A stretch of 64,000 nt of DNA from Psammoneis japonica (GCA_008632985.1 QPGO01000022.1:124001-188000), one strand, 5' to 3'. Counted from the first letter of the stretch, positions 4,858 through 44,646 are shown. The notes: a model not told the origin generated them from the letters alone. Translations and numbers: made by a program.

Positions 4858-5450
4858 TTCGGGTATGCCTTCGTCAGTTTCTTGCTTGCCATGAGATCTT
4901 GTGTTTCCAGTGTATCTGGAATTGTTCTATACTGGACTTATTTCCCGGCCAGCTGAGATGTCTGGCCCGCCAGGCCGGGTGCTTGGTGTCTTTCCTGTAT
5001 CTGCCTCTGTTGTCATGGTTATCTTTTTGTTTCATCAAAAAGGTATTGTTCTCATTGTGTGCGAACCAAACCCGCCAAATTAATTTGGATGCGAACGATG
5101 ATGTCATCAGAACTTCATTTTCACTCTTTGCATCATCGTCGCGTTTTTGCGTTCGCTTTCTCGCGCTCTTAGTACTTCTGTGTTGTGTGTTGTGTGTGTA
5201 TGTTGTCATAATGTTCATTTCTCATCAATGTAGAAGTAGAAGTAGAAATGAGTACGGCAGTCATGAGCTGTCAATCGTGGGATTGAGAAACGGCCAGACG
5301 CAGTCTCAGTGCATCATGCACTCAGATTCATTGTGTCCTGAAGATTGCAAACGACATCATCATCACCCAACCTTCCCAGATTTGCACAAAAACATGGGTC
5401 GCATCAAACATGCAAGATTTGTCTTTGCTTGAACACGCACTTTGTCAAAA

Positions 5451-5606
5451 CACAGCAGCGAGCAGTTGGGAGCAGAGCACCAGTGCTCACATCAGGAGCA
5501 CAGGCGCTTGCACAGCATCGCATTGTGTCGAAGCACAGCAGCGCGCAGTTGGGAGCGCAGCACCAGTGCTCACATCAGGAGCACAGGCGCTTGCACAGCA
5601 TCGCAG
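5451..5606. repeat. Two-copy tandem repeat, about 83 bp period
   Basis: cacagcagcg.gcagttgggagc..agcaccagtgctcacatcaggagcacaggcgcttgcacagcatcgca at 5451 and 5534. Confidence 0.9.
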
Positions 5607-5964
5607 TGAGCAACATGCACTTCATTGCGTGCTGGAAAAGGCCGTTTCTCGTTTCTCCACAAACACCATCAATGCGGAGCACCTCCAACAATGGCCGTCG
5701 CCGCTGAAAACGAGCATTGTGGATGTTGTGTTGATGCCATTGGGCCTGCTGTTGTCAACCCAAAAACTGGTTCACAATGAAAACAAATGAGAATGTTCTC
5801 TTGAGCCGAAATGTGTTTCTTCATTCTCACACTGTTCTCAGCGAGTGAATCAAATCGCTCCACTGCATTTGACGGAATCTGTTGATTCGAAGTGTTTTTT
5901 GGTTTGCTCAACTTCTTGTTCTCCTTTAATCTTTGTCCACATTTCTACAGGAAAATGTCACATC

Positions 5965-6150
5965 ATGCTGGGCGGCTCAAGTTGACACCACTTCAAACGG
6001 GGCGGTTCAAGCGGGCTGCGTCATGCGAGGCACGAGGCGGCTCAAGCGGATGCCAACACCTTGCTGGGCGGCTCAAGTGGACACCTGCACCTTGCTGGGT
6101 AACTCAAGTGGATGCCAACACCTCGCTGGGTGACTCAAGTGGATGCCAAT
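5965..6150. repeat. Minisatellite, about 30 bp unit, about 5-6 degenerate copies
   Basis: Recurrent gctgggcggctcaagtggatgccaacacc. Confidence 0.85.
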
Positions 6151-6399
6151 GTTGAACATTGTGTGGAGTGGTCCAAGGGTGAGGAGCACTCTTCATTTTA
6201 AAATCTGCGGTCTACCACTTTTGGGAAAGTCCCGAAACAAAGGGCAGACGAGGTTGCTCTCGTCTCTAACAACCACGAGTGACTGTCAAGGCAGCTGACT
6301 GCAGCAGCTCCTCAGCAATTTTTCTCTGCAAGACGGCCCGCGAGAGCCAAGGGGTTGCTCCCCGGTGAGACTGAGAGTGGCACCTCCAAGGAAGGGGGT

Positions 6400-8989
6400 G
6401 CCACTCGACGTGCTGCGACCCAAATCTCAGTTAGATGGGGTTGCCTACCCTCTGAGGTGGTGATTGGTTGTTTTCAAGGAATGTGGCAGGATGGAAGGAT
6501 AAAACAGCTGGACTGGATTGATCCACAGCACAGAATGGTCATCGAAAAGCTTGGATGGTCGTCCGCAGTGGCGCTTCTAGACGCCTCTCCTCCGCTGGAC
6601 GCTTGTCCATTTTCTTGTGCTTGCGCACCTTCTTACAAAGTCGATCTTGCGCAATGCCATCGACTGATCCAACATCTGAAAGGCGTTGGGCACGGGAAAA
6701 AGCAGTGCAGGTCAAACCATGCTCCTTCTCGCGGTTGGACAAATCGACGACAAAATGGGACTTGATGGTTTGGCCTTGAGCTTTCCAAATGGTCATCACC
6801 CAGCAAAAGCTTCAAGGGCAACACAGCACGAGCATGTTCATCACAGCCCGCATCATCTTGCTTTCGAGTGCACACGGCTGCAGTCACAGGGTGAATTGGC
6901 ACCCAACCTCGGCAACTGTCGTCGTCGGGAAAAAACGTTCCTCCACCGTAGTCTCTGCCAAAGTCAACCCACACAAACTTTGGAAGAGATGGAGCCAAGC
7001 CTGATTCGTCACACACAATGTCCTTTGCTGTCCCAGTTGCTCCATTGCACAATCCCGCCGACTGAGCAATGTTCATGGCAAGCATTGCTTGTGCTCCGAC
7101 GCTGAGGTGCACCNNNNNNNNNNNNNNNNNNNNNNNNNNNNNNNNNNNNNNNNNNNNNNNNNNNNNNNNNNNNNNNNNNNNNNNNNNNNNNNNNNNNNNN
7201 NNNNNNNNNNNNNNNNNNNNNNNNNNNNNNNNNNNNNNNNNNNNNNNNNNNNNNNNNNNNNNNNNNNNNNNNNNNNNNNNNNNNNNNNNNNNNNNNNNNN
7301 NNNNNNNNNNNNNNNNNNNNNNNNNNNNNNNNNNNNNNNNNNNNNNNNNNNNNNNNNNCAATTTCCATCATGAAGACGCTCTAGGAAGCCACAGAACCAA
7401 ACTGATTTGGGATCGTTGGGGTCGATGCGATTGTTTTTTGTCAGCTTGATGACCGTGTTGAACATTTGGTAGAGATTGTATCCGTTTCGATCATCATTGC
7501 TCGCAAACCCAGTCGCTTCCCACAAACAACGTCCTCCTGCTGGTGGCAACTGTCCAGGATCACCAGCCGATGCCACAACAACTCCGCCAAATGGTTCATT
7601 GACACCTTTGATTTCACGCAATCTCCGGTCGATGTGATGAAACTCTCTTTGACGCAGCATCGAGAACTCATCAAGAATCAAAAGCTTGAGATTCGCAAAC
7701 TTATCTTGAGCTTCAGTGAGATTTTTGTTCGTGAGAGGACGACAACGTTTACCGGAGAGGGGCATTCCCAGTCCTTCTTGGTGAGAGTGAACCGTAGATC
7801 CACCAATGACCGTTGCAGCCTTGCCTGTTGTAGCCACAAGAGCACAGCTGCTTGTCGGAAGTCCACGGTCCCGGAGAGTGGTGGCAACAGCATCAACAGC
7901 AAATGATTTTCCTGCACCTCCCATCCCAACAAGGAGAATGCACTGTCCCTCACTCTCTCCAACAACAGCACTTACAATTGCGTTGTGAGCCAGACGTTGT
8001 CGTTCATTGAGCGAGTCAAAAGAAACTTGACTCCTTGCAGCTCGATCGACGGGGTTAGACATGAGATGATCATGCTTTCGCTCCACTTCCTTGTCCCATC
8101 CATCACATTCCGGACAGTCATGCTCGAGTTCTGAAAAATCATGATCCTCTGACCATTTGAGATTGCTTCCAGAAAGAGCTGATGCATCGTCCATCTGCGC
8201 AGCATGCCCTGCATCCATCCAAGAGTCTTGGCTTGCATCCGTTGAACCAGAGTCCAAGTCGTCACCCATTGGCGCGTCAACGTTGTCATTCACGCCGTTC
8301 CTGTTGGGCAAGCGCAAGCTCGATTCAATCTCGCATTGAAGAAAACCAGGAATTTGTTGACCTTGTCGCGTCAGAAATGGAGCATGCTGGCTCCAAGCAC
8401 GAATGACATCGTCATTGGATGCGTTGGCGCCACCCCAAGCAGATTCAAATGTGCCACTCCATGGTTGATGCTTGGTCAATGAGTGCTTGCAGTGCTTGAC
8501 AAAGTTGGGACCTCCAGGAGAACTTGGGACTCGAGGTGCAAAAATGGCTGCCGTGTTGGGTTTCTGGTGGCAGCGGATTTTCTTCTTGTGCTTTCCCGAC
8601 TTGCCAACACAGAATCTAGCGGCAAATTCTTGTAGAGTGAGGTCTCTAAGTCCTGGCTCAAAGGCTGCAAAAACTGAACGATTGGCCCAGGCTTCTTGGT
8701 TGAGGCGTGCAGCGCATGCATCAACGACCGTCGGCATTGCAGCAGAATCCGCTCCTGCATCGGCGCCAACGTCTCCATCAGAAGGATCATCCGACTCCTC
8801 CAGGTCAACTTGCCCAGTGGCATTTTCGAGATTGACAGTGACAAAGGTGTGGGAGCAAGAGACAAGAGGCAAACTTAAAATGAGATGGCACGTCTCCTGT
8901 TTGGAAACCATTCGCTCACCTGTTTGGGGTGACCATTTTGATTCATTCAAAGAACAAACAATGTGCTGTGAGCAGAAATGTAAAGTCAC
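6400..8989 (-). pseudogene. PIF1-like SF1 helicase region of the Helitron, spanning an assembly gap
   Basis: ORFs 7073..8989, 6633..7361 and 6539..6799 with Walker A/B, GLCNGATG, and helicase motifs V/VI. Confidence 0.88.
7114..7358. other. Assembly gap (N run)
   Basis: Run of N bases. Confidence 1.
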
Positions 8990-11806
8990 ACAAGGATCAA
9001 ATCAAAACTAGACGTGCCCAAAAGCTTGGCCATTGCACTCTTCAACGCTGCCTGTGCACTGCATCCATCATCGATTTTCTGCTCTGCTATTTTGTGAACC
9101 ATCGCGGTCATTCGCATGGACGGCATGCTGGATTCAGACTTGGAGACGCACTTGGTCATGTGCTCAACGACCTTGCCGGCATCTGCAACAAGTCGGAAAT
9201 CAACATTGGCTCTCCAAACCTCGAACATTGGGCGCAATGACTGTTGATCCACTTGTCGTTGCGTGCCAACACCATTTCCATTCTTGAGACTTTTTGGGTC
9301 TCTCCAGCTGTGTTCTTGACAAGCTTCTCTACAACAACCAGACGAGAAATTCTTGAAAGCTGCAAAGGATGTCCAAAGCGACAGTCCAAAATGTGTTCAT
9401 CTGCTTTCGCCTTGTCGCACTTGGACTTGCGGTCACAGCAGCCGCCGGGCTTGCATGCATGCCGTTCCACCACGTTGCATGGATTGCAGCAGTTGCTGGT
9501 GCAGTCATCTCTCGTCATCTCTGGCACATCTTGAGGCCTGTCATTGCTTGGGTGCACTCCATCCACCCCGGGACGAAACTTGGTGGACTCAGCCGCTTGT
9601 CGGATGTGGCATCTTCTGGAGGGCTGGGGTGAAACGCAGAGATGAGAAATTCATTAAAGGCGACAACCACGTCTTGTGCCTCCTTTCCATCTCTGACAGC
9701 TTGCAGCATCTGTTCAAAAGAAAGCTCCTCGTCATCTTTGCATTCAAACTCCTCTTCATGTGTGTCCAGTTCACGATCCTCCTTGGCAAAATCGTCATCC
9801 TCATCCAGTGGACCTTGTTGGCACAGTTTCAAAGCAGCCAATCTTCCTTCCAAAACAACCTGTGACAGGTCTGTCAGCCCCGGGTCAGCCTCCAGTCGCA
9901 AACATCCGTGAACATGAGCGGTGCCGGGGGCTTGGTGTTCGATCCGAAACCAAGTCCAGCTTGTTTTCATGCCATTCTTTCCAAAGAAGCTCTTCATCAT
10001 CAAATTGACCCGTTCTTGAAAGAAGGCGTCAACAATGTGAGGATTGTCTCGGACAGCCTTGCGACGATGGGTGGCTTTCTCTTCTTCTGAAAACTCTTCA
10101 TGGTTAGAGTTGCAAGCCAACAAGGCGTGAAGGTCCGCCCAGTGGTTGTCGGCGGCTGAAAAAGCAAACCACAATGTGGGCATTCCGCACTGGTCCATCA
10201 GAGCCTCGAGCTCCTTCTTCTTCTTGTAGAAATGCGAATCGCCACCTGGGATGTTCGCGTTGAACTTTTGCATGTTGGAAACAAGTTCTTTGAAGCGCGG
10301 CCCCTTCTCTTGCACCACATGCTTCAGCTCTTCCTCGGCGAGCTGTGCGTTTTCTGGGCACTTTCGCAGGCATGCTTTCTTTTGATCCTGGTGACGATGT
10401 CGAGCAGCTGCATTCTCGGCCCAATGCATCCACCGATTGTGGCGTGCAAACGGATGCACCCACTCTCCCTCCTTGTTGTCAAAATGGGCATGCTGAAGCA
10501 AGTGCTTGTTCGCCTCCGCCATGGTCACGTTGACGCGGCGATCGTTGCACGTGACATCCCCATCGCCGCATGGGAAGAGAGCAGGAAAGGCTGGGCTTTG
10601 AAGCCGAGGAAAGGTGTGGTCATTGATGGGCTGGCCGTTGTTTTCAATCTCTTGGATGACAGAAGCAGGATCAAATCGATCGCGGAGAGTGCTTGAAATT
10701 TCGGCGCGCTGCTGACCTGGATGAGGGCCAGATGGCAGATGCCCAGACGCAACATCCTCGCCCTCCTGTCCGCTTGCCCCACCTTGTTCTGGACCACTGG
10801 CAGCAGCGTCTTGGTCCTCACTTGCATCACCTGCTGGCTCACTCTCATCTGAAACAGAAGACATGGAATCTGCCACTGAACCATCCTCTGGAAGAAGTGA
10901 AAGCTTTTCTGGGTCAATGTCGATGTCACAACAGCCCGGATGATTTTCCTTCAGCCAGACAAGACATTCTGTGACATTGTCATGGCGAACCTGAAAGTCT
11001 TTGCATCCATTTGGTGTCCTTTGGTTTGGCTTTCGAAGGACAAAAACTGGCAAGTCGGAAACCTTGAGTGGAAGGCTCGCAATGACTTCGTTCACATCCT
11101 TTTCAAGATTCACGACGGATCCTTTGTACCCAACTTGACCAGACTGCAGACGACAGCACTTCATGACAGCATGAGTGCAAGCAATTGGCATCTCTTTGAC
11201 CTCGGATGGCATGGGCAGGTGGGCAGGACGTCCCTTGGCATGGATGTCCATGTTGTTTGCTGCAGAGAAACGACTCAACACATGCTCCTTGATGTCCTTG
11301 GAACAAGCAAGGCACTGCCGCGGGTCGGACTTGTTCATGGTCATGTTGAACCAGCGCTTCTTGCAAGTGGCACACCGCGTCATTTCTGTCTTTGAAATTC
11401 CGTGCACAAATTCATCTTGACAAGCTTTCATCTGTGGACCAGTCAAACAAGAGTGAGAACGATTGAAGAGGAAAGCAACGACAATCAAAATTGTGTCTCT
11501 TGCATTGGGGTGGTCTTCTAGATTGACACCTGGATGCCGGCCGTCCCTGCAAGCTTCAAAACATTCATCAAGGGAAGAGGGTGGAACTGGAGGGTTGTCA
11601 GAAGAGGACGAAGTAGATGATGATGACGAGGAGGAAGACGAGGACGAGGACGAGGAAGGGTCATCGTCCATTGGTTGCCTTTTTCGTCTGTTTGCTTGTT
11701 TCATTGCTTGGCGGTTTTGCAGTCTTGCTTCTGCTGTTGACACCCCTTTGAAAATCTGGCTTCTGCATTTGATTGGCGTTGTTGAGCCCTTGCCGTTTCT
11801 TGCCAT
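8986..11806 (-). pseudogene. Helitron Rep (HUH endonuclease) region, frameshifted
   Basis: ORFs 9515..11806, 9156..9566 and 8986..9252; motifs WRANVDFRLV and VEHMTKCVSK (mutated YxxKY). Confidence 0.85.
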
Positions 11807-13728
11807 TCTTGAGTCGACAGGTGTTCTCGTGCTCGTGCTTGAGATTGCTCCTTCCTTCCATTCGCAACTCTGTGATTGTTGGTGGAGGAATCAATGGCAG
11901 CTGGCAGATCTGGATGAGCAAGAATGGATGAAGTAGAGCCGTGAGTAAAAAATTCGATGAAGTAGAACCAACAAAATAGAAACACTTACGACTCGAAGTG
12001 CGTTGTCGTTTCGCATCTCTGTCAGAAGAATCATCGACAGCGCCGGGCACTCGTCGAGTTCTGTGACGAAACTCAGGATCAGTGATGTTTGAAACCTCCG
12101 AATCTTGCGTTGACGAAATCTCAATGTGATCGACTGGAAGAGAAAACTCGGGATGTTTGGCGCGACTCTGGAAAGTGTCCTCTCGGTTGCGCTTCCTGAC
12201 GTCTTTTACGGCTCGATCCTCCGCTCGGCGTTCAGCACGTCTCTTTCGGCTTCGTTCTCTTCTGCGCTGTGCAGAGGTTGAAAACGAATCGGGGGTTCCA
12301 AATGCTGCATCCTGCGATCCATGAGAATGGTGCGCATGCGGCGCTCCAATATGTGCGTGTGGCGGCATGTGATGGGGAGCAGGAGGTGGACGAAAGCAAG
12401 GAGCCGACATCCAATGATCACAGGGAGGAGACAAAAAAGCTTGAGCCGGAGCACGCTGGCATCCAAAATTGGGCACACCCGGTGGCATCATGAAAGCATC
12501 GCAGGGGCGAGAGTTCCTCACATCGAGAGAGCCATGAACGACAGACGGGTTCCAGTCCTGGGTGGGACTTTTTGTGACATTTGCCCCGCAGAATTCTGCG
12601 TGCGAGCTCTGTAGTTCGTACTCTGGTTGATGGATGTGTTTGTCTTCGACATGAAACAAACAGCCAAGTTTGCAGTGCACACATCTCTGTTCACACTCGA
12701 AGTTTTGGACAATGCGCCTGCCCCATGCCACTCTCAAGACACTCGAGAATGGCGCAGAAGAAAAAAATGTTAAAAGTTGTTGAATGGATCGCCTGACAAT
12801 TGCACTATAAAATGACACAAAATTTTGCCAAAATCATGTAGAAATGTACGTGCGCGACATGCGACGCGATTCAAAAAACCATCGATGTCACAGTTCAGCA
12901 GTGCGAGGTCCCACCCAGACCTGGAACGCGTCGACAGGAGGAGAAAAAGCAACACCATTTCGAATGCATTCGTTCCACTCATCAATCAAAGAAGCTTGAG
13001 ATTTGGTGGAATGGGTCGATGCGGGCGATGCAGGTTCTGGAGCTTCCGGTGGAACGTCGGGTCCGGCGGAAAAGAATGCCTTCTCAACAAGCTCTTGCTC
13101 CTTTGGATCCGTTGTCGCTTGTCCCACCAGATGACGAGTGGGCATGGGAAAGGAAGCAAAAGGAAAGAGGAGGATGAGTGTAGATGCAAGAGGTGCAATC
13201 TTCATCGTGTCGAAAGCGATGTCGAGACGAGACGATGAGTTTTGTGTTTGGCGGGATTTTGTTTTCCACGGGAAAAGTGAGTGGCGAGACCTCGTTTCAA
13301 TCAAGAGCTCGCAGGTGCGGAAGTTGGGTGCGACTGTTCGTGGTTGAATGTTCATTGAAATTGATGTAGAATCCTGCTGAAATCAAGTTGAGTTCTGTTT
13401 TACCGACAGTGACTCTGTTTTGGTGACAGTGGATGTTTCACTGTAAAAAATCTGTGGGTGTTTTGAGAAGCGCTTCGGGGAAACTCTGTTCGGACCGTCA
13501 AATGGAATTTTTTTTATGCAGATTCCAGAGTTCTTTCTGGGTGTTCTGCAAGATTTTTGAAATGGCACATGCATGTGTTAGAGGCACAAGCAAATTCAAT
13601 GACATGCAATGGCCTCAGAGACTGACACAAATTTATCTTCCATGTGGACCGCGTAGATTGTGCACCGGCCGAAAATCCACCGCCTGTCAACTCATCAGCA
13701 GCAATTCTACGTACATTCTACATGCACC

Positions 13729-14780
13729 TCACACACGCACACACACCTGCACAGTCCAATGACCACACACTGCGTGCGCGAGATCACCAGTTTCCATCCC
13801 AACGATGCATCCTTTCAATGAGGATTCGTGAGTGTCTTGAAGAGGGCTCTGCCACGGAAATGTGAATGAACATGCCACATCAGCAACTCCCGCCTTGCAT
13901 TCCCGTGCGCTGCGTTTTTCGAAAATGGACAATGCAAGCTTTCCAAATCTTGATGCCTCGCTCAATTTCCCAAGTGAGCACTGCACAATTCCATGCTGAG
14001 TGAAGGCAAACAAAGACAGATTTGTCTCCCGTCACGCAGCGTGTGCTTCATTGAACGAAGCAACAGAACAACAAACAAAGTGCTTTTCTTTGACCAGAAG
14101 GCACATCGAGCAATCAAAATGATCGCCTTCATTGCGCTCATCTTGTGATCGTCCGTCATTTGTGGTGGAGAGAGAAGGCCATCATTGTCCAACTTGCGCA
14201 CCATTTTCTTCACTTTTGTGTTGTCACGCAAGACATGTGGCACAGACGGTCTCTCGGGCATGATTTCTCCCAGCTGGGAGAGCAGCTCAAGACAAATTTT
14301 AACAGCTTTGTCACACTTTCTCTGGTTGGCAGAGAGGGACTCTATGATGGCAAAATGCACAGGGACCTCATCGTCAAGAGATCGAGCATTTGACAGCACC
14401 TTGTCTGACATGAGTCTGCTCAGTTCAATGTTCCCATTTCTTAGCTCCATTTCAGCCGAAGCACTGTGTGGCTTCAAGTTCAAGTTGTGCTCTTCGTTCC
14501 AACTGTTCTTCTGGTCTTTCAGCAGTGCAATGCCACATTGGAGGTGTTCTGCGCTGGCACAAAAGCAAATGTGCCCATTGCAATCTTGGCGGCTTCTAGG
14601 TTCAGCTTGGTTGATTGTGTTTTGGCATGGTCAGATGAGATGCACCTTGAACCAAGGTTCAATTGATGCGCAGCAACAACCAGCAACACCTCCTTTGATC
14701 CTTTGCAAGAGGTGCTGCTGCACCATGTTGTTTTGTCAATCTCAATGTGTGACTTGTCCTTTTCGTCCCTGCCAGCCCTG
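13729..14780 (-). pseudogene. Fragment of a diatom AAA-ATPase/TPR-like ('multi-sensor kinase'-type) gene family member, hypermutated
   Basis: AEMEL..G......D.VL.NARSL.D, LELLSQLGE..P, A.RFGKLAL and G...GMETGDL resemble the helical C-terminal region of this expanded diatom family. Tyr positions appear as H/C. Confidence 0.55.
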
Positions 14781-14819
14781 AGCAAACAAGCGGCTCATTG
14801 GACACAATCACGCGAGAAC

Positions 14820-15846
14820 TGGGAAGCAAGCGCTTCTTTGCTGGGTCAGCGCACCGCCCACTCAAGACAGGAAAGGAATCCGGGTGGGCACTTGAGACTT
14901 TTGCAGGCGAGTGGTGTTTGTTGTGTGCATCATTCGCACGACACGTGAGACACACAACAAACCATTCTGTGGCAATGCTTCTGAAATTGCCTCCTCACTC
15001 CTTGACTCTTTGTCCCTCTCAAACAAACACGAAGAATGAGGAGCTCTCTCTCAAACCGTTCATGTCAGGCTGTCAGTTTCTCTGATGGAAGGACAGACGT
15101 CAATGTGACACGTCAGATGGACTAGACCGCAACGTTTCCGCCAAAATCCTTCCCACTTCCGTGCTCTGCTGTGACAGCGGCTGCCGCCGCTTTGGCAGCT
15201 CGTCCCCTTGTGCTCTCTCAGGCCAGTCAACAGCGGTGTTGGCGGCAAGCGCTTCTTTGCTGGGTTGGCGCACCACCCACTCAAGACAGGAAAGGATTCC
15301 AGAATCCTGAGTGCCTCCACCACAGGGCCAAACGGCACCAAATTGGGAAGGGTGGGTGGGTGCCGGTGGACAATCCAAAATGACTTGGCGGGAGCAAAGG
15401 CCGGCAATGACCTTGAAGCATCTGTCCACAGAGGGAGTGGATGGAAGGGAGAATGAGAGGTGTTGTTGAAAAAAGAGGAGAGGAAAAAATTTTGGCAAGG
15501 CATGGAAAACCTTGGTGCAAAGCCGGGCAAAAAACCCGGCCAAGCCAAAAATGCAGCATCTGTGTCTTTTGCAGGCAAGTGGTGTTTGTTGTGTGCATCA
15601 TTCGCGTGACACGTGAGACATGCAATGAACCATTCTGTGGCAATGCTTCTGAAATTGCCTCCTCACTCCTTGATTCTTCATTCCTCTCAAACAAACAGGA
15701 AGAACAAGGAGCTCTCTCTCAAACCATTCATGTCAGGATGTCAGTTTCTCTGATGGAAGGACAGATGTCAATGCAACACGTCAGATGGACTGGGCTGCAA
15801 CGTTTCCGCCAAAATCCTTCCTGCTTCCGTGCTCCGCTGTGACAGT
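14820..15846. repeat. Local direct duplication: about 280 bp block (14898-15178 vs 15567-15846) plus about 60 bp block (14826-14881 vs 15245-15300)
   Basis: Near-identical ttttgcaggc.agtggtgtttgttgtgtgcatcattcgc...ctgtgacag and gcaagcgcttctttgctggg...aagacaggaaagg. Confidence 0.9.
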
Positions 15847-18800
15847 GGACACCACCCCTGTGCAAGGGAAGAGTGTGGATGTGATGGCATGGTGATGTGA
15901 TTTAGACGTCATCCAAATTTTTGTGTGTTGTCATTTAACAAAATTTGGCATTTGCACACAAATGCTCACAGTGTCAGGGAAAATGTGTTTGTTGGTGAGA
16001 ATGTGAACACATGCAACTCAACGCATGTGATTGTGTCATCACACACCACAACCACCTGAATCCCACAGCAGCCCTTGCACAGGGGTGGGCAGATGCCTTT
16101 TCCTGCCAGCTGCCAGCAGAGGGATCATACACTGAAGTCTGGGAAAGCAGCAAATGGAAGACAGCCAGACGCTTGGCACATTTTCTACATGGAAAAACAC
16201 CCGGGTTCTTGTCCACCATCATGTGGAACTCTGATTCACAAACAGTGATTCATGGGCAAAAATGGCCTCTGCATGTTCTGTGTTTTTGACAACAAAACAA
16301 CACGGTGAAGTGCAAGGCACCATGGAAGAATGCCATGGCGTGATGCTGTTGGATGTTTTCATCCTCGGCATTCTCTGTAGAAATGCAGCAGAGTTCAGCA
16401 GCGAGACTTGTGTGAGTTTGTGTGGGGCTTTGCAAGTTTTTGCGTGTGTGTCGAAACCGTGAAAGATGGGTGCAACACAGAAATCCACTTGATGAGGTGT
16501 GGTCTGTCCAACCTCACGTTGCTCCCAGACTTTAGTGCATGATCCCTTGCCTTTTCAATGAGGCAGGAATCTTTCGAAAATGACCCGTGACGTAAAACTC
16601 ATAAAACAATTGTGGGCGCCTGTGGAATCTACACATTTTTGCACTGAAACTTTTGTGTTCACACAATTTGTGCAAAAATGGACTTGACTGTTGTCAGGTC
16701 AGGCGCATTTTTGCAAATGCGTTGAAGAAAAATGTGCCTGATCACTTTACAGTCAAGTCCTTTTTTTGCAAAGTTAAAATTCACCAAGGACAGACAGACA
16801 GACTTTCCGGCGATTGTCTTGGTGCTGTTCACACATTTTTGCGCAAATGACTCTACAGCGCGAAAGATTGCCATTGTCCCTCATCACCAGTGGATGCCAG
16901 ACAAGGATTTTTATTGTCTCTTCCCCCGCTCCCTTCCTTTCTTCAACCCACCTTAAACAACGGCACAGCCCTTCTCTTTCTCCCCTTTCTCAACCAGTCA
17001 TTTCTCCAGCCAAATTGCAGGGCCCTGCACAACCACCCCCTTGCCCCCACACCACCCTTTTTTGACACCTCCTGCAGCCCATTTCTGGTTTCTCCATTCT
17101 GAACCCTTCCCCACGATTGTTCCTGCGATGTCGTTGTGATTCACACAACAGCCCTTTTCTCCATCCCCTTTCCAGGATTCCTTCCCCGACAACTCTTGCA
17201 GCTCCCACGACTTTGATCGTGACTCCTTCAACTGCCTTTTTTTGATGACCTTCTCCCAAGTCACCCCATCATTGAACAACCCCAACTGCCCCCACCCAAC
17301 AACATCACCCCAATTCAGCACCCACCCAATCATTTTCTCCAACACTTCCTCTCCCTTCACGACACACAAAAACTCAACTCAACGCGTGAAAAAAACAACT
17401 CAATGCATCAACCAAGACGCCGACTTCAATCTTGCCTTCCGCACCCTCCTGCACTCTGCCATGTCTTCCCCACAGGACAAATCCAACTGGCCCTCTCTTC
17501 AAGAAAGTGTCCAGAACTCCCAAACCCAAGAGTCTCCATCACTGCTCCCCACCCCTGCCACTTTGCCAAATCCACCTGCGTCTCTGCCCAAGTCTCCACC
17601 CAAATCTCTGCCCAAGTCTCCGCCCCAAACTGTTTGTGCATCCCTTGATTCTTCCTCTGTTTCTGCTGCTGCTGCCACCCATTCTATGGCCAAAACCTCC
17701 AATGACTCCAACACCCAAATGCACGTTGATGCTCCCGCTGCTCTCCATGACTCCATGACACATCTTGCCACTGTTGAACTCCTTCTTCAATTTCTGCGGC
17801 CATCCGACCCTGCCAACAAACCCGAACCAGCTCTCAATGCAGATGGAGTCAAACCTGTCATCCAAGACACTCTCCACATGCACACCACCCACAAACTTCA
17901 CATCCTCTTCAAGATGGCTCATGTCACCTTCCCTGAAACCAAACGCCACTCCCGTCCCCATCACAACCAATGGGCATCCTGTTTCGAGATCACCCTGGCC
18001 CCAGTCACTTCCAACAAACCTTTTGATTGTTGCCTCTTCCACGACCAAGTGCTTCGTTTTGCTCCGCAAAAACGGCACCTTCATGCTCCCCAACAATTCA
18101 AACCCCACTCTGCCACCTCTGACCACCCAAACTTCCTCCCTTCAGACGCAAAAGAAATCCCGGTGTCCTCCAACCCTTGGAGCCAACATGCCACCTTCCT
18201 CACCCTGGCTTGCAACTCTTTTGCCAAACAAGCCCATGGAATTCTTGCCCGTGCAAATCCCAAGACCTGTGGTCAATCCAGACACACATGTGAATTCCTC
18301 CTTCAGCAACTGTTTGACCACGTCAAATCCCTCCTGCCTGCCACCTCCTCAGACCCCAATTTCACCTTCCTCAATCACGTTGGGATCCAACCCTCCCATT
18401 TCCTAAGTTTCTCTGAACACACCACCAACATCCCCAAATCCGATGTTCATTTCCTCCTCACCACTTCTGCACCAGCAACATGGACTTCACTTTTGTCCAT
18501 CGTCAACCCCGCCAACACACCACCACTGATCATCCACATCCTTGGCCTTTCTCTTTTGGTGATTCCATTTCCCTCCTTTCAAAACACCCTCGCGCCTGCA
18601 GGCTGTCAACAGATGCCAAACCAACTGCTGCATCACAATTTCAAGCCGCTTGAACATCTCCGCACCCTCCAACTGCAACAAACTTCTTGCCACTCCCAAC
18701 CTTTGTGGAGTCATCCCCATTTTCTTCAATCATGATGACACCCTGATCAAACACAAGCTCCTCTTCTTCGCCACTCCCTTCATTGTTGACATCACTGATG

Positions 18801-21800
18801 CTGCCCTTCACCTCTGCCTTGGCATTCCCAAGACCCCACTCAAAGACTTGCCTTCTTGCCACCTTCCTCCATCTCCCACCCAAACATCTGCATCCTTTGC
18901 TCAAGCAGCCACCAAACCCTCAGGCGACACCCCATCCGAAATGGCTCTGTCCTTCCTCAAAGCTTCCTGGCAGCCTGCGCCACCACCAACACCCACAACA
19001 CCACAGATCACATTGACTTCTCCATCTCACAACACCAAGAAACGCTCCCATCCCCACAACCTCAACGGATCCAAAACCACCACCTTGGAACAAGACACCC
19101 TGGCCATTGCAGCCACCAACATTGAGAACACCCCACAACTCAACTGAACTGACACAGACTTCAAGCATTCCCAATGCAACCTTGAGCTCCTTGATGTCTT
19201 TGACCAATGAGTTCATGCTTTTGCCCCTGCACACCTTGACAAATGATCCAAACTCACTCAAGATGCAACTGCATCCAATCAAGACCCCAACGCACTTTGC
19301 CCAACCCTCCAGAAATGGAGCCCTTCGGCACCCACACCCCGCTGGGGGTTGTCAATGGTTCATGCCCCTTTGAGGGCTGCTTTTTTTCTCTTGTGCACAA
19401 TGCTCTTCCAAACCAAGCACCTGAGCTCCTGTGCGCCCACCTTTCTTCTGTTCATGAACACTGCAGTCTCTGTGCATCCATGCCACCACTGCCAACGCAC
19501 CACCAAAATGCACCTCCGCAATGCATGCTCACATGCCCATGTGTGCAACACTCATTGTCAACCTCACTCAGTCACTGACATCCAGCTCATCGCATCCTCC
19601 TGCCCACGTCAAGAGCTCACTGATTGGCCAGCCTCCCTTCAGTGGCTCGACTCTTCACCTCTGTCACCCCCGCCTTTTTGCGCCTCCATTTGGCACAAGC
19701 CACCTTCATCCTCCCGCCTTCAAGTTCTTCTCACCCTGCACCACCTCATCCAATGGACTGTTGACTCCTCCAAGCCTTTTGACCTCACCAATGATCCACC
19801 CCCACCCTGGCAAACATCCTCAGAACCCTTTTTCAAGCTTCTTTTCCTCTTTGAATCCCTCATCCTCTGCCCACGACCCAAGGATGCTAAGATCCCCATG
19901 TCAACCTCCATCACTCAACACCTCTTCCTTTTCTGCAACTGCTCCATCCAAACCCTGCACAACAACTCATGTTCCGCAGCAGCCCCTGACGTCTCTGACG
20001 AACCTCCCAACTTTGATGACACATCATGCATCCACTCCACCCAACTTGCTGCGAACATCAACAACCTTCACACTGCCTGTGCCCGAGTCACTTCCTCCCT
20101 TGCCATTGCACCCCTGACCCCTGAATGCATGGAACTTGTCAAACAACTCCACCCACCACACAAACACCCACCCCTTCCTTCAGCTCCATCCACTTGACAC
20201 CACCACCCTGCCTCCACCCCTCTGCACTTTACCATGGATGACCTTCAGAAAGCACCAGCCAAATGCCAACCTGGCAAAGCACCTGGTGCTTTTGCCAACT
20301 CCACTGACCTTTTCAAAGCCTGCACCCTTCACCATTGCTCTGCACCAACATCTTCCTCTCACCCTTGTCTGCTTGCCTTAAGTGGCTCCTTGACCTCATC
20401 CTTGCCACAGAGACATCCCTGCATCTGTCAAGCCTGCTTTCTCATTCAACTGCTTCCTCACCCACATGAAGACAAATCAACCTCTCCAAACTCCACCCCA
20501 ACGGCATTGGCACTGCCTTGCAACAAATTGTCTGCACCCTCATCATGTTCCTTCTTGCCACCACCTTTGCTGCTAACCTCCTCCTCTCTGGCCAATTCAA
20601 AGTTGGCGTCAAAGGCGGCCTCAACTGCCTCATTGACACCACCTGCGCCAACATCAAACACTTCTTCCAACCTGAGTCAACACCAACAAAGGCTCTCCCA
20701 CTTCTAAACCTCTCCAGCTGTTTCAATGAATGCTCCCATGATGCTTGCCGTGACACCCTTGTCAACTCAGAGGAACACCGTTCCATTGCACCTTTCTTTG
20801 ATCTGCTTTGTCACAACCCCAACACCTGTTGCTGTCAAGACCATCATCTGCAATTGTCTTCCTTCTCTCAACCCAAAGGTTTCACCCAAGGCTGTCCCCT
20901 GAGCCCCACCTTTTCCTGCCTTGTCCTTGCCCGTGCATTCAAGCCCATCAATGACAAACTGCACCATCAGCTTCCTCCCTGCTCCAAATCTGCCACCTCA
21001 TCTTGTGTCATCGACGCCCACACATTCCTCCCCTTCTCTCAACTTCCTTGTTTCCTCAAGCGCCTTTCTGCTCTTGGCCCTCAATTTGGAATCAAACTCA
21101 ATGCATCCAAAACCAAAATCCTTCCATCTGCATTGGCACCTCTCCCATTGACCGCCTCCCACCTGCTGATGCTCAGGCCCTCTCTGAAGCCCTCTCCTTT
21201 CTCAATCCCACCAACAACCCACAGGCCAAACCTGAACTCACATCCGGCATCCACTTCCTCAGCCAACCCATCAGCTCCTTTACCTTCACCATTGACTTCC
21301 TCCATGACAAAGCCATTTCCTTTGCCATGGATCTCTGACGCCTCACCAACCACCTCACTGAAAATCAAACACAAAGCACCCTGTTCCACAAATGCTCCAT
21401 CCCCTCTGTCACCCACCTCTTCACATCTGATGCATGCCACAACCTCAAGCACTCCAACAACTTTTCAACCCCTCCTTCCAATGGGCATCTCCTTTTGTCA
21501 ACAAGGTCATTGGCCACTCCCTGCATTTCCTTGCTCATCTTACTCAACACACTGCCCCCATTCCCTCCTCAGCCAAACTCATTGCCAACCTCCCCATTTC
21601 ATTGGGTGGAATTGGATGCCAAGACATCTCTGCTGTCACCATCCCCACCCTCATTGCCTCCCTTGCCAGATCAATGCGCCACACCAAACACGGCATCCCA
21701 CTCACCGGTGGCAATGTGTTTCATCTTCCTTCAAGCCACTCTGCCGCTCTTGGCTCATGGTCTAACCCACACTCCACCCTTTCCCTTTGCCACATTTTCC

Positions 21801-21884
21801 ACTGCTGCACCCACGTCCTCCTCCAACTCAACTCTTCCTCCTTCACCTCCCTGACACACGCTGTTGAACACCACAACCTGCAAG

Positions 21885-22261
21885 TGCACTGTGCTCAAAG
21901 AACAAGTGCAAACAAAAGTAGAATGAGGTGTGAAAAGTGAAAATTGTGAGATTCATTTCTGGTCAATCATTTTGGGTTTCTCTGAATGAACTCTCAATGG
22001 CCCAAAGCTTTTGTGCTGCTTCCACAGGCAAAAGGCCTTTTGGAGAACAAGATTGTGACAACAGATTGTCTGGGTGCAATTGATGTTGACACATGAGATG
22101 TCAACATCATCGTACAATCGCACTTGCATTTTTTGACATCCAATCAGTTCTGTGTGATTGATCTGTCCTTTGTACAAACCCACAATTGACGTGCGATTGA
22201 AACATCATTTTGTTTGACACATGGATGTGCACACATGATGTGCGCAACAATGCATGTTGCA
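21885..22261 (-). repeat. Gypsy 3' LTR (about 377 bp, TGCA...TGCA)
   Basis: Aligns along its full length to 26697-27075. Confidence 0.9.
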
Positions 22262-25200
22262 CTCGCCTCCCCAATTGCACATTAGAGTCAGTCGTTAAAT
22301 GGTGTCACACCATGGATGTTGACTGTGTCCACAACATCACTGTGTTTGATCTGTGCTGTGCCATTGGTGTGTGCCATTGTCATTGCATGCAGTCCAACAC
22401 AGGGCTGTTCTAATTTTTGAGAGTCTTTCTCAAGTGGTGTCTTTTCTCCTGCTCTGTGCACATGAGGAGCATGTCAAGCATTCTCTTGAGCATTGTTTTT
22501 ATTTGTGATTTCTTGTTTGCGCTGCTGGATTGATGTCCAGTCTGTGACATGTTGGACGTTAAATGTCATGTCTCCATTGAAGACTGGTTGTCCTGGGAAT
22601 GCAGCTTGCACAGTGGTGTGATGCGTTGAATGCACTGGAAATGCTGCTGCTGACAATGTTCCACCAAAAGGATCCTCAGCATCCAGAGGTGCATGTTGCA
22701 GATCAAATGCACGGATCATGTTTCCCAGTGCTTGATGCACGTGTTCAACAATTGCGTTTGCTTGTGGATTTCATGCAGTTGTGGGCTTGACTTCAGCGCC
22801 ACAATCATCTTGCACCACATCTTTAAATTGGTGTCTGATGAACTCACTTCCACGGTCACATGCAATTGACAATGAATGGCCAAGGGTGTCTGCTTGGCCA
22901 TGTCCATTCCAATGGTCCAGCTGCAGTTGTGGATTCCTCATTTGAGATTTCCACAACTTCAAACCATCAGGTTGCTGGATCAATCATTGTCAAGCATTTC
23001 AGGATTGGGGGTTTCTTCTTTCCCTTGCAGCACATTTTGCATGGTCCAATGAGATCCACAAACAGTCGTTCCCATGGCACTGATTCTGCACACTTGGGAG
23101 GTAAATGTCCACATTTCTTGTGTTTCTTTTTGAATTTCTGGCACGTCTCACATGTCTCGACACGTGTTTTTGCATGTCTTCATGCAAGGTGGACCACCAC
23201 AAGTGTTGTGAGATTGTTTCTTCAGTTCAATTTGTGCCACAGTGAAGAAGGTCATATGATGCCAATCTGTCACTGCCTTTTGCAACATCTTTGGAACAAC
23301 AATTTTGTCCTTGTGACATGTGAGCAACTGGTCTCGCTCACCTCCACAAAAAGTCTTTGTGTGAAATGTCTTGTTTGACAATTTGGAGAGAATGTCTTTG
23401 TCCCATTTTTGTTCAGTGTCAAGAACTTGGCAATTTAACAGAAAGACATTGTCGCAGGATTTTGGCAGGACCTTTCCAGCCAATTCTTCTGTGTTGAGGT
23501 TTTCCACAGGTTCTGTTTTCTTCACAGCAAGTCGGCTGATTGCATCTGCAACAATGTTTGCCTTGCCCTTGAGATGAGTTGTTTTGGGACTGCACTCTTC
23601 TGTTGTTAGATGCCAATGCATGACTCTGTCCGTTGTGAAATTTTTGTGGGTGAGATTTTTTGTGATCTGTGCATGTGCTTGTCTGTTGGTCAAACAGCAT
23701 GTTTTGGAACTCTTTTGACATCTCCACTGTGGACAACAGTTCTTTTTTTGTTGCAGTGTGGTGCGTCTGCACTCCATTCAGCTTGCAGCTGCAGAAGGCA
23801 ATTGGTTGGTTGTTCTGTGCAATGACCGCCCCCAATTGAGAATTGCTTGCATCAGCATGCATCTCAAAGAAGAGCATGTTGAAATTTGGACATGCAATGA
23901 CAGTGTGTCTTTGGAGATGATGTGCTTCACATTTTGAAGGCTTTTTGTTCTGTTTTGGTCCATTGCCACTTCACCTGGGTTGAGGTGAGTTTGGCCAAAG
24001 GAGCTGGAACATGAGATCATTCAGGCCACATGTCTTGACAGCAGTTGATCATGCTGACAAAGTGTTGCAATTCCTTGCAAGTTTTGGGAGTTGCGATTGC
24101 ATGAATTGCTTCTGCTTTTTTTGGAATTGCACTGATGCCATTGCAGGTGACATGAAAGCCCAGATGGTCTGCTTTGGGTTTAGCGAAAAAAGACTTTTCA
24201 GTGTTGATTTTCAGTCCGGCTTGCTCAAGGTGCAGAAACACTCTTTCAAGCTTTTTGAGGTGGTCTTGAATGTCACCTTTTGTGAGGCACAGCATGTCAT
24301 CAATGTGGGTTCTGATGAACTCCAAACCTGCCATGAGTTCACTCACGTGCTCTTGGAAAATGTCTGGAGCTCCACAGATTCCCACAGGGAGTCTGCAGCA
24401 TTCACATTTGCCCCAAGGCATGACAATCATGCACAAACAACGTGCATGCGGCGTCAACTTGATGTGACAGTGTCCCATGTTTAAATCAAGGGACGTTGCA
24501 TGCACAAAACGTTCAAGCTTCTGTGGCATGTCCTGAACATTGGGTGGAGGAAATGGAGCATGCATTGACCTCTCATTTGGCTCACACAAGTTGGGTGGGA
24601 GCCAAACTTGACCATTTTTCTTTGGTTGAACAAAGGTTGGAGCTGCCCATTCAGAACAATTTGTTTTTCTCAAGAGCTTCAACTTGCACAGTCTTTCAAC
24701 TTCCTTTTGAGCAGTTGCCTCCAAGGCTTGTGGTGCAGGAAATGGTTTGGCATGATGCGGACTCACGTCTGATTTCAACTTCAAATCCACCAGTTTCCCA
24801 GTCCATTTGCCCAGAGAACCATCGAAAAGGTTTTCAAATCTTTTTAAGAGGAAGTTAAGTTGCTTCTGCTCTTCTGGAGTTAGATGAGTTGCTGCTGCTG
24901 TTACATTGTCAAGGTCAGCAGCATGACAGTCTGAGTCAAGGATCCGATTGACCCTGTCATCAAGACCAACCACAGCATGAGATTCCTCAATCTGATTGGC
25001 AATCAACTTAAAAACATTGGCATTGAAGAGTGTGTCAACATTCTTCATTGGTGCAGTTGCATCCTCCCATTTGATCTCTTTGTCAGAAAAGTCTAATGTG
25101 GTTTCAAGACTCGACATTAAGTCACATCCCATGATCATGTCATGATGACTCAAAGAAGAAGAGGGGTGTCATCAACACACACAGTTGTTTCAATCATCTT

Positions 25201-26696
25201 GTGTTTGTCAAATTTGGGTGAGGAGAATTGGACTTTACATCAACTGTCAGTTGCAAAGAGCCCTCCTTTGGTTTCCCAGATTTTGGTGGCAGATTCCTTG
25301 GTTCTGAGTTTCTGCATGAATTTGTGCAAAATTGTGGTTGACGATGTTCTGCTGTCAAGGAGAACGCACAGAGGCTCATTTTTTGCTTTGCCTGAAGAGG
25401 CATTCATACAAGCAATGACTGCTGGACTAGCATGAATTGCTTTGGTCCTTTTTCTGGGCTTCCCAATGTCCAGCAATGTGCAAGACTCCTCGTGCAGTGC
25501 AAGTCATTCCTCAGAATTGCTGCACGTCATTTTTCCAAACTGACAATTCTCCTCATTGAGGGCATCAGAGTCACAATCTTTGCTCTTGCACTTTTCATCT
25601 TTGTTCAAGGAACTTGCCTTGAGCATTTTTTGAACTGCTTGGACTGCCACAGCATTCAACTCTTCTTTGCAAGCGGCATTTTTGTTGTTGCGACACGACC
25701 ACATGCAGTTGCCATTTGAGCGGCACCATTTTGGATCACGTTCACAGTTTCCATGGCATTCTTTGGCCAGCTTTTTGAGAGACCAGCACTTGTCCATGTG
25801 TGAGTGAATTTTTTGCAAAGAATGCACCACTTGTTGGACTGAGAGTTTTCGGCACCATGTTGGTGACCATTTTTGGAACCACGTTTGGAGCCATTCTTGG
25901 CTTTTGATCCAGGACTGCCACTGGCATCAGCCTTGACATGAATGCTGTCAAACATGTCTTTTGCAACCTCCGGGCGCTCCAGAAACTCAACCAACTTGTC
26001 ATGGGCATGTTTCAAAATTTCGAAACCTTGGACAGTCGACTGACACTGCCATTTGCGAGGTGCAAGGTTGAAAAGGACATCCATGAGCACATCCTCCTTG
26101 ATCTTCTGATCCTCCTCAAAGGGTGGATAGAACTTGAGGTCTTCGTTGACTTCCTGAACCCAAGCTGCAATTTCACGCACTTTCACAGAGTCTGGCTTCT
26201 TGAGATGGTGACGCAAACAACGTTTCTGAATCTGGAGTGTGTTCTTGGGAAACACATGCCTTGTGAGATGTTGTGGACACTTCTCAAAGCCTCCTTGTTC
26301 CTTAGATTCATCTTCAACATTCACCACGTCATTCTCAAAAGCACGCAGAGCATCTCCCTGCAACAGCGCGCACATGAGCCAGAACTTGTCAGCTTGCTTC
26401 CTGACATTCTGGCCTGCCAAGAGTTGATCGCAGCTCTTGAGAAATTCAATGCACTTGGGAACGCCCTGTTTCTTGCAGCACTGGACATTGATGGTGCAGG
26501 TGAGACTGTCTTTCTTCTGGGAATAAAAACACTGCTCCGCCATGAGACACTGGCTTGGTTTGAGCATCTTCAGCTCAGAGTTTGATTCCAATGGCTGAGG
26601 AACGATTTTCTCCTGCCTTGATGAAGTCATGGCGTCAGTGACTTGAGGTGAAAGCTTCATTTTTGACTTGTTGCCTTTTGTGGTGTGCACACGCAA

Positions 26697-27075
26697 TGCA
26701 CCATGCTTTAAGAACGAGTGTGAACAAAAGTGGAATGAAGTGTGAACAGTGAAAATCACGAGATTAATTTCCAGCCAATCATTTTGGGTTTCTCCGAACA
26801 AGTTCTCAATGGCCTGAAGCTTTTGCGCTGCTTCCACAGGCAAAAAAGGCCTTTCAGAGAATAAGATTGTGACAACAGATTGTCCGGACACCATTGAAAT
26901 TGACACACAAGATGTCAATGTCATTGTGCGATCGCATTTGCATCATTCAACATCCCATCAATTCTGTGTGATTGATCTGTCCTTTGTACGAACTCATGAT
27001 TGACACGCGATTGAAATGTCATTTTATTCAATGTGCAGATGTGCACACATGATGTGCACAACAACGCATGTTGCA
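26697..27075 (-). repeat. Gypsy 5' LTR (about 379 bp, TGCA...TGCA)
   Basis: Aligns along its full length to 21885-22261. Confidence 0.9.
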
Positions 27076-32500: not shown

Positions 32501-32699
32501 AACCAACAGAGACGTTTTGAGTCAGAAACTTGGAGAACTGCACCAAACAAACATGGCAATCAATGGAACAGTGGGTGCAATCAGCGACATCACTTGAGGG
32601 ACAGTTCTTAGAGGATGGAAGGCTCAGAGAGTCAATGGAACTCAGCCTGGGTTTGATTTAAAACACACGGACTTTGTTGTTTCAAATTTGGAACTTGTC

Positions 32700-37644: not shown

Positions 37645-38013
37645 GATCTAAACCTGAGGAACCGCTCGGCGCGCCGCGCCCAATCGCTAATGATAAAGCA
37701 CACTAAACCAACTTGAATTGATCACATGGTAAATTCTTCACTCTCTCTACTCTAGTAGAGAGCTCTACTCTCTAGCTAGAGATAGTAGGGTAGCCAGCTA
37801 GCTACTGTAGAGTCGAGCGATGGATTCGGTTGAAACCGAAAACAGCCGAGCGCGCGAGTTGAATTGAGAATGGGGCCAATGAGAGTGACCGCACAGGCTA
37901 GACTCCTCTAGCTAGAGTAGAGGGTACTCTAGAATGGCGAAGAGAATCTAGATTTCCAGAGTTGAAGAATGAAAGTCTAGCAATCTTACCCTAACCGGTA
38001 GCAGTCTTTCCAA

Positions 38014-39915: not shown

Positions 39916-40079
39916 GGCTTTTCACTTTCGACTGCAACCACGTTTCCTGCGAGAATCACGATCAAGGCCCCCAAACCATGACTTTCCAGGGGGTCTTTCC
40001 ACCGCAATGCCTTACAACACTTTCAACTACTTGCTTTTTGTTTACACGGTAAGTTTAGGTCTATTGTACCGGTAAAATC

Positions 40080-44250: not shown

Positions 44251-44646
44251 TGTGTTGTGTTCGGACCTTGCCGCGATCAAGGGGACTACTTGTTGTACAA
44301 CATCATGCGTGTAATGTACCGTACAACTGTAGGGCTGCTGCATGCTGTTCTCAAGAGTTACTGCTCTGTTACTATCAAAAACTTGTATATTCGCCATTTA
44401 TACGTACACCTAATTAACATCCGTAAGAAAATTGGCGGCTTGGTCTTGGTAAAATTTGTAAAAGAGATATACATGGCTATACAGTTTATTCTTGTGAGGT
44501 ATCGACCGCCTCACAAAATCGACACACCCTTGCAAGACTTGACCTTGATTTTGTTCATCACAGCCATTTCCTTTTATGCAACATGTTTTGGGCCGTACAA
44601 TGAGGCGATAAAAACAACGACCTCACACCGCTGCTACGTTTAAACA

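Follow-up and report, generated by a model that had tools for sequence, protein, structure and literature searches.

We analysed a 64,000-nucleotide stretch of the genome of the diatom Psammoneis japonica (GCA_008632985.1 QPGO01000022.1:124001-188000), hereafter the window, in which two blocks of transposable elements (TEs), including a Helitron and a Gypsy long terminal repeat (LTR) retrotransposon, have lost nearly all of their TpA dinucleotides. We consider it probable that these blocks were hit after insertion by a DNA-level hypermutation of TA to TG or CA, and that a slower loss of CpG followed. Four properties of the TpA change are established by the evidence given below: its direction, its target, its symmetry between strands and its occurrence after insertion. 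Its lead over CpG loss is established as well. By analogy with a preprint on Bigelowiella natans, the leading candidate for the enzyme would be a DNA adenine deaminase.

TpA depletion is confined to the repeat blocks, with sharp borders at 5254, 37639, 40394 and 44286, and host genes are spared. The first block (5254..37639, 32.4 kb), delimited by TA positions and 500-bp windows, has sharp edges: TA is frequent up to 5253 and next occurs at 5927, while on the right 36957-37639 is free of TA, which becomes frequent again beyond. The 500-bp windows lying wholly inside it (5501-37500) have TpA observed/expected ratios (o/e) of 0.00-0.25. The second block (40394..44286, 3.9 kb) contains 3 TA in 3893 bp. 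Separating the two, a host-like island of 2.75 kb (37640..40393; CpG o/e 0.92, TpA o/e 0.60) was spared by both TpA and CpG loss; its open reading frame (ORF) at 38014-39795 (minus strand) encodes 3.4% Tyr and has no Pfam match.

The Helitron (6400-12800, minus strand) differs from the remaining repeats in its CpG content. Its CpG o/e is 0.75 (0.67-0.82; intervals are block-bootstrap 95% confidence intervals) and its TpA o/e 0.11 (0.07-0.14), with 298 CG and 39 TA in 6156 called bases. The initial annotation, which described this element as keeping CpG while lacking TpA, was right in both respects, and the two strings it quoted were found at 10530 and 10700. CpG is nevertheless not intact: it lies well above that of the other elements, with confidence intervals that do not overlap those of elements from 17 kb onward, but is lowered relative to host DNA (0.75 vs ~1.0). 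Moreover, the zone retaining CpG, ~5254-14000, is broader than the Helitron (CpG o/e 0.64 at 5254-6399 and 0.73 at 12801-14800). CpG and TpA o/e are 0.33 and 0.04 in the LINE-like (long interspersed nuclear element-like) segment 17140-21800, 0.31 and 0.08 in the Gypsy element (21880-27076), 0.33 and 0.08 at 27077-30000, 0.17 and 0.07 at 30001-34147, 0.11 and 0.04 at 34148-37639, and 0.21 and 0.01 at 40394-44286, compared with 0.92-1.01 and 0.57-0.60 in host DNA. The elements between 17 and 37.5 kb are accordingly poor in both dinucleotides, as had been annotated (CpG 0.11-0.33 and TpA 0.04-0.08 across the 17140-37639 segments); for all repeats other than the Helitron the ranges are 0.11-0.47 and 0.01-0.10. 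TG and CA are in excess in repeats (o/e 1.4-2.2 vs ~1.15 in host DNA), and block GC, at 0.45-0.52, is not below the 0.48 of host DNA.

The depletion also marks the reading frames. ORFs in TEs contain 0-0.8% Tyr, compared with 1.3-4.7% in 10 of 12 host ORFs, the other two being low-complexity ORFs with 0.7% and 0.9%. TAA and TAG stops together number 231 in TE blocks and 933 in host DNA, and ORFs of at least 100 amino acids number 35 and 27 per 10 kb, respectively. This gain in ORF length is modest because the loss of TA removes TAA and TAG while TGA rises in the TE blocks.

The Helitron RepHel coding remnant spans 6551..11530 on the minus strand and matches the Pfam families DUF6570 (E = 2.6e-19), Helitron_like_N (E = 2.4e-22), PIF1 helicase (E = 7.8e-25) and Pif1 2B domain, so that the combination defining RepHel, a Rep (HUH) domain joined to a helicase of Pif1 type, is present. 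Full-length homologues (1468-2281 amino acids) are collinear with it by tblastn from 11530 down to 6551, across ~4 frameshifts, with frame changes near 9590, 9234, 9016/8920 and 6817; a run of 245 N in the helicase region (7114..7358) leaves the number of frame breaks there uncertain. The two-tyrosine motif of Rep (9148..9162, minus strand) is Y-M-T-K-Y in homologues and H-M-T-K-C (CAC, TGC) in the window, and both columns are Tyr in 26/26 aligned homologues. We take these two mutated residues of the Y-x-x-K-Y motif to be the catalytic tyrosines of Helitron Rep. The element is a dead copy, still a member of its family; with such frameshifts and both motif tyrosines mutated, the long ORFs remarked on in the initial annotation do not signify function.

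To reconstruct ancestral states, we aligned 150 Helitron homologues from a full HMMER search to the window by tblastn and retained those columns that were covered by 15 or more homologue residues and in which the consensus reached 50% or more. Since TA changing to TG or CA turns a Tyr codon (TAY) into Cys (TGY) or His (CAY), conserved Tyr columns report directly on TpA. Only 3 of 20 such columns are kept; 7 now read His (CAY) and 6 Cys (TGY), with Phe in 3 and Gly in 1, whereas 309/382 other conserved columns are kept (p = 1.6e-9). Tyr makes up a median of 3.3% of the homologues and 0.3% of the window ORF. Conserved Arg columns, in contrast, are kept in 22/27 cases, 19 of them as CGN, and 3 columns are now CAN.

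The Gypsy element (21880..27076, minus strand; LTRs at 21880-22262 and 26693-27076, pol at 22291-25428) carries Pfam RVT_1 and RNase H matches at 23422-25168 and, aligned with 120 homologues, shows no fewer than 4 changes of frame and 8 stops. Its 35 conserved Tyr columns have all been lost, 13 to His, 13 to Cys, 6 to Phe and 3 to other residues. Conserved Arg columns number 48, of which 14 still encode Arg (4 by CGN, 10 by AGR) and 27 have become CAN or TGN, 3 of these being TGA stops; this amounts to a loss of 27/31 Arg inferred to have been CGN. Conserved Tyr became His or Cys in 13/20 columns of the Helitron and 26/35 of the Gypsy element, and these alignments indicate that TpA loss is real mutation rather than native composition. 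P0376, an unrelated Gypsy pol protein taken from a different data source (JGI, 4097-bp contig), has lost 23/25 conserved Tyr (13 to His, 6 to Cys) while keeping 21/28 Arg, the same state as the Helitron, and three control homologues beside it keep 20-27 of 24-31 Tyr; the TpA process thus exists outside this window as well.

Both products of the change occur at similar frequency. The His:Cys ratio is 7:6 for the Helitron, 13:13 for the Gypsy element and 13:6 for P0376, and the Helitron contains 563 TG and 538 CA. The near-equality of His and Cys, together with the involvement of a DNA transposon, points to an A:T>G:C change at TpA that occurs at the DNA level and on both strands. Conversion of TpA to TpG or CpA requires A>G chemistry (T>C when read on the opposite strand) and so lies beyond what cytosine deamination can yield. 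When contigs of X1, the one sequencing run that contains this DNA, were compared with the window over 7400-27200, we counted 500 A>G, 585 T>C, 537 C>T and 519 G>A differences, with 50-85 for each transversion type, and many of the differences were adjacent T>C plus G>A pairs.

ADAR-like A-to-I editing of transposon transcripts, fixed through reverse transcription, could be suspected on the ground that ADARs prefer a target A preceded by U, a point made in the B. natans preprint (bioRxiv 10.64898/2026.01.13.699255). Editing of sense RNA, however, would yield Tyr>Cys only, and His is as common as Cys; the Helitron has no RNA copy step, and unannotated non-coding parts of the blocks are equally depleted. 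We give this explanation almost no credence and rejected it as contradicted by the strand symmetry.

The timing of the change can be read from the LTRs of the Gypsy element, which are 82% identical and differ at 68/382 sites. Fifty mismatches lie in CA<>TG, CG<>TG/CA or TA<>TG/CA pairs, and the differences comprise 17 CA<>TG doubles, 12 CG<>TG/CA, 4 TA<>TG/CA, 11 other transitions and 7 transversions. As the two LTRs were identical at insertion, the 17 discordant CA<>TG sites place TpA change after insertion. These sites also weigh against the idea, which we judge very unlikely, that the TpA-poor state was inherited from mutated source copies or is native to the families rather than acquired at the locus. 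In its favour, the Helitron is a single copy in the window, with no paired copy for comparison, and in a 96.7% identical tandem pair (34148..36102; 982 bp aligned, 32 mismatches) most TG and CA sites are concordant, so that already-mutated DNA was duplicated there. Against it, a Helitron lacking two catalytic tyrosines and 17/20 conserved Tyr could not have transposed itself, and among the 80 best Gypsy-related metagenome loci, a ranking that favours intact copies, all 80 have a TpA o/e of at least 0.43 (range 0.43-1.06, none <0.4) and 64 a CpG o/e of at least 0.74. These related loci give the starting composition. In the tandem pair itself, concordant dinucleotides number 128 TG, 81 CA, 2 CG and 2 TA; the duplication postdates the loss of most TA and CG. 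Since then, 7 CG<>x and 2 TA<>x differences have arisen beside 1.7% other divergence, and both kinds of site kept changing.

An assembly or base-calling artefact, in which dense modification of TA in repeats would cause TG or CA to be called instead, is in our view extremely unlikely. Contig pieces of run X1 (612-1028 bp, within 15942-21711) reproduce the TA-poor sequence with 0-6 differences at an even word depth of 57-71, although X1 may be the assembled sample, and paralogues differ in having TG or CA at the same site, unlike a context-driven miscall. Native composition and sequencing artefact were both rejected.

The lead of TpA loss over CpG loss is seen within the Helitron, where 17/20 conserved Tyr but 3/22 CGN-Arg are lost (Fisher p = 6e-6). 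Between the elements, CGN loss rises from 3/22 in the Helitron to 27/31 in the Gypsy element (p = 9e-8), and Tyr loss from 17/20 to 35/35; TA-type and CG-type changes at conserved columns stand at 24:5 and 65:49, respectively. We further compared repeats of the same age, estimating per-copy loss by moments with bootstrap from CG/CG, CG/x, TA/TA, TA/x and discordant TG/CA sites and omitting concordant TG or CA. A direct repeat pair (14898-15180 and 15566-15848, 90.8% identical) differs in 283 aligned bases by 6 CA<>TG doubles, 8 CG<>TG/CA, 1 TA<>TG/CA and 5 others. Its per-copy loss is 0.95 for TpA (90% bootstrap 0.76-1.0) and 0.40 for CpG (0.2-0.6), and TpA loss exceeds CpG loss in 99% of usable bootstraps (4592 of 5000 being usable). 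For the LTR pair the values are 0.89 and 0.75, with TpA ahead in 85% of usable bootstraps (3462 of 5000 being usable). TpA loss leads in this genome. The two losses also dissociate in both directions: the Helitron is TpA-poor and keeps CpG, P0376 has lost conserved Tyr and kept Arg, and 9/80 metagenome Gypsy loci show the reverse state (CpG o/e <0.5 with TpA o/e 0.43-0.88). The suggestion that TpA loss is a separate process running ahead of CpG loss is thereby upheld, and on inferred ancestral states in addition to composition. The accompanying idea of a two-speed clock for insertion age fared less well: TpA does lead, and residual TpA tracks CpG (Spearman 0.84, p = 0.002, over n=10 hand-cut, non-independent segments), but with TpA o/e at 0.01-0.14 in every element, near its floor, it is here almost an on/off mark.

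We infer that age is the chief reason why the Helitron keeps CpG. It is also possible, if on the unlikely side, that the Helitron zone keeps CpG through little or no methylation, for example at a block edge near genes, so that CpG would record methylation exposure rather than youth. The CpG-keeping zone 5254-14000 does adjoin host genes and extends past the Helitron, and a proxy for background change differs only ~2-fold between the Helitron and the Gypsy element ('other single transitions' at conserved columns, 2.5% vs 5.2%), yet CGN-Arg loss differs ~6-fold (14% vs 87%). This proxy is confounded by true lineage divergence, however; the Helitron's CpG o/e of 0.75 is already under the host range, with three conserved Arg codons changed from CGN to CAN, so that some CpG decay is under way; and the block edges at 37639 and 40394 also adjoin host DNA yet are CpG-poor. 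Diatom TEs carry DNA methylation, and CG>TG/CA loss was found in repeats, with host CpG o/e near 1.

Several points weigh against an ordered sequence of TpA hypermutation and later, age-dependent CpG loss. Age alone may be insufficient to account for the CpG gap between the Helitron and the Gypsy element, and the assignment of CpG loss to 5-methylcytosine (5mC) deamination, most likely as it is, is one that we infer. The same-age tests draw on few sites and presuppose copies that started out identical, a 50:50 ratio of TG to CA and zero gene conversion, and for the tandem pair 34148/35116 the TpA term is not estimable. TpA depletion was seen in 0 of the best 80 metagenome relatives, a set that is uninformative on the spread of the signature, given that its ranking favours intact copies.

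The TA that survive are unevenly distributed among sequence contexts. Expressed as TA density in blocks divided by that in host DNA (170 and 1051 TA, respectively), survival is 0.014 for ATAC, 0.024 for ATAT, 0.045 for ATAG, 0.086 for GTAC, 0.20 for CTAG and 0.59 for TTAA. Tentatively, these ratios fit a process that acts on the two strands independently and prefers the base preceding T in the order A > G > C > T. Part of the surviving TA may be new, having arisen from other mutations; TTGA is the most frequent TG context and could therefore feed TTAA. CpG within GCGC is undepleted, at 2.21 per kb in blocks and 2.16 in host DNA.

TA is its own reverse complement, and A>G on one strand cannot be distinguished from T>C on the other. 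This leaves room for a route through thymine modification, such as 5-hydroxymethyluracil (5hmU) made by a TET/JBP-type enzyme in silenced repeats and mispairing with G, which we consider rather improbable. In dinoflagellates, a 5hmU-making enzyme reportedly silences TEs. In the part of the literature consulted, the repeats of dinoflagellates are enriched in 5hmU, for which early work indicated a TA and TC preference, but 5hmU in Breviolum is described as having no sequence motif (PMC11071213). A TC>CC signal was not seen in the window, where no search aimed at it was made. The step from 5hmU to a T>C transition is, in addition, an assumption.

In the mechanism that we favour, a targeted DNA-level hypermutation would change 5'-TA-3' to TG or CA by A>G on either strand, with about equally frequent outcomes, and would strip 85-100% of ancestral TpA, coming to an abrupt stop where the repeat blocks end. 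Coding capacity would be destroyed as Tyr turned into His or Cys, a fate shared by the two catalytic tyrosines of the Helitron Rep. CpG would be removed more slowly by a second process of CG>TG/CA, most likely 5mC deamination in CG-methylated repeats, which would accumulate with time. The Helitron and its surroundings (5.25-14 kb) would have passed through the first process and undergone the second only slightly, whereas the older Gypsy and LINE-like elements and the repeats at 30-44 kb would have undergone both.

Of the known systems, repeat-induced point mutation, the RIP of ascomycete fungi, resembles this one in that heavy, dinucleotide-specific transitions wreck repeat genes after insertion and neighbouring genes are spared. 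RIP acts mostly at CpA, and hence creates TpA and lowers GC; here, unlike in RIP, TpA is destroyed and GC rises. The TpA excess and AT enrichment expected of RIP were not observed, TpA being depleted and block GC (0.45-0.52) not lower than in the host (0.48). In chemical terms RIP is a C>T change, as described in the parts of the preprint consulted (bioRxiv 10.64898/2026.01.13.699255). Decay of CpG driven by 5mC is matched by the 27/31 Gypsy CGN-Arg now CAN or TGN and by a host CpG o/e near 1; unlike the TpA change, it leaves TpA alone, as in the 9/80 relatives that are CpG-poor with normal TpA. APOBEC and ADAR footprints likewise consist of deaminase-type transitions fixed in mobile-element copies, but these enzymes act on single-stranded cDNA or RNA, with strand bias and on retroelements only, whereas the signature here is strand-symmetric and includes a DNA transposon.

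The closest counterpart is that of B. natans. According to the main text of the preprint, 230/231 mutations in two integrated viral regions of mutation-accumulation lines were A>G or T>C, the GC-biased mutations all fell on TpA at ~6e-7 per site per generation (~1000x background), and 324 TpA-poor coding sequences were enriched in reverse transcriptase and DDE domains (bioRxiv 10.64898/2026.01.13.699255). An ADAT2-like deaminase is proposed there as the enzyme (Mettrop et al., bioRxiv 10.64898/2026.01.13.699255). Our window shares with B. natans the TpA target, the TpG and CpA products with an excess of both, the two-strand symmetry and the restriction to foreign or mobile DNA. It differs in that the host is a diatom (a stramenopile) rather than a chlorarachniophyte (a rhizarian), and in that the signal is historical and was not seen arising de novo. 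It also differs in saturation, all TE classes here having a TpA o/e of 0.01-0.14, compared with a Rho of 0.45 reported in the main text for the nucleocytoplasmic large DNA virus insert of B. natans. That main text mentions neither CpG nor diatoms nor trinucleotides, and the relation to CpG and the effect of the -2 base are untreated in it. Full-text literature searches turned up no description of TpA-directed hypermutation from diatoms, and the B. natans preprint was the sole paper they yielded with the signature. What is new here is its presence in a diatom, a member of another major lineage, in a form far more extreme than in the preprint case.

We lean, if only slightly, towards the broader view that diatoms carry a RIP-like defence of opposite chemistry, in which a DNA-level mutator would rewrite TpA on both strands of any new transposon class, quickly and with sharp borders, with ATA the most and TTA the least sensitive context, and upstream of and independent from cytosine methylation. 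If this is true, then TpA hypermutation would, with the Bigelowiella case added, be a defence widespread among algae of the stramenopile-alveolate-rhizarian (SAR) group. Directed mutation of repeats as a defence had been a fungal speciality, in the form of RIP, and the B. natans preprint describes a TpA-directed version in a chlorarachniophyte; the TpA signature now appears at saturation, on all transposon classes, in a tractable and important algal group, which suggests a wider distribution of a TpA mutator. The Helitron supplies the order of events, TpA loss first and CpG loss later, and separates the mutator from methylation-driven decay; in practice, this order can also guide the dating of repeats and their annotation. 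In such genomes, Tyr-free "ORFs" rich in His and Cys are dead transposons, and homology searches fail on them: with the mutated Helitron ORF, a word-indexed protein search found 2 relatives and a full HMMER search 2822.

Two observations concern the flanks of the Helitron. The stretch 12027-13348 has a summed contig word depth of 16,000-53,000 in run X1, compared with ~65 for single-copy sequence and 200-400 over the Helitron; with a CpG o/e of ~1.0-1.1, low TpA and no Rfam or Pfam match, it is a very high-copy sequence that adjoins the Helitron or forms its 5' part. Directly downstream of the Helitron coding end and within the TA-poor block, the minus strand at 5990-6190 contains imperfect copies of a ~32-bp tandem motif. 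On reading 5150-6660, we did not locate the Helitron termini (5'-TC ... CTRR-3' with a 3' hairpin), which TA>TG/CA changes would obscure.

The LINE-like element (17000..22000, plus strand) has a weak RVT_1 match at 20470-21765 (E = 2.1e-4, under the Pfam cut-off). A trace of reverse transcriptase is what this sub-threshold match provides for the LINE label of the initial annotation, and we retain it in the qualified form. The plus strand of this element has 39.2% C and 12.7% G, a GC skew of ~-0.5 over 5 kb, and 601 CA vs 323 TG. The skew goes beyond TpA loss alone, the C-G gap being ~1235 bases and the CA excess 278, and may reflect native composition or a further strand-specific process. At 17.3-19.3 kb, where TpA o/e is 0.00-0.04, summed contig depth is 96-122 vs ~65 for single-copy sequence, a measure of present rather than past copy number. 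Copia and Ginger, also named in the annotation, received no Pfam confirmation in the blocks: their sole trace is a sub-threshold integrase core (rve) remnant at 36036..36824 (minus strand; E = 1.5e-6, 28.8 bits, cut-off 32.6), and a scan of 98 further ORFs added just RT_RNaseH at 23422-23970. An Rfam scan of 5000-45000 gave 0 matches.

The window is eukaryotic, with host genes in three stretches (1-5.2 kb, 37.6-40.4 kb and 44.3-64 kb); among their products are a cyclin, a SpoU methylase, a spastin-like AAA ATPase and a fragment of Sec6. Among the 120 relatives listed for the AAA ATPase ORF (57066-59009), 11 carry organism names and 11/11 are diatoms: Fragilaria, Fistulifera (x2), Nitzschia (x2), a Bacillariaceae metagenome-assembled genome, Seminavis, Chaetoceros and Cylindrotheca, with two further, truncated names that we take to be Asterionellopsis and Pseudo-nitzschia. 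Over at least 68% of the query these relatives reach 58% identity at best, and shorter matches up to 67%. The ORF at 53338-54672 (plus strand, 444 amino acids), with 11% Met, 12.8% Gln and no Pfam match, is a low-complexity host protein or a repeat. The host ORF at 59083-59967 (minus strand, 294 amino acids) matches the CesT (Tir chaperone) family with E = 1.3e-10, a bacterial type III secretion chaperone fold that is unusual in a diatom gene.

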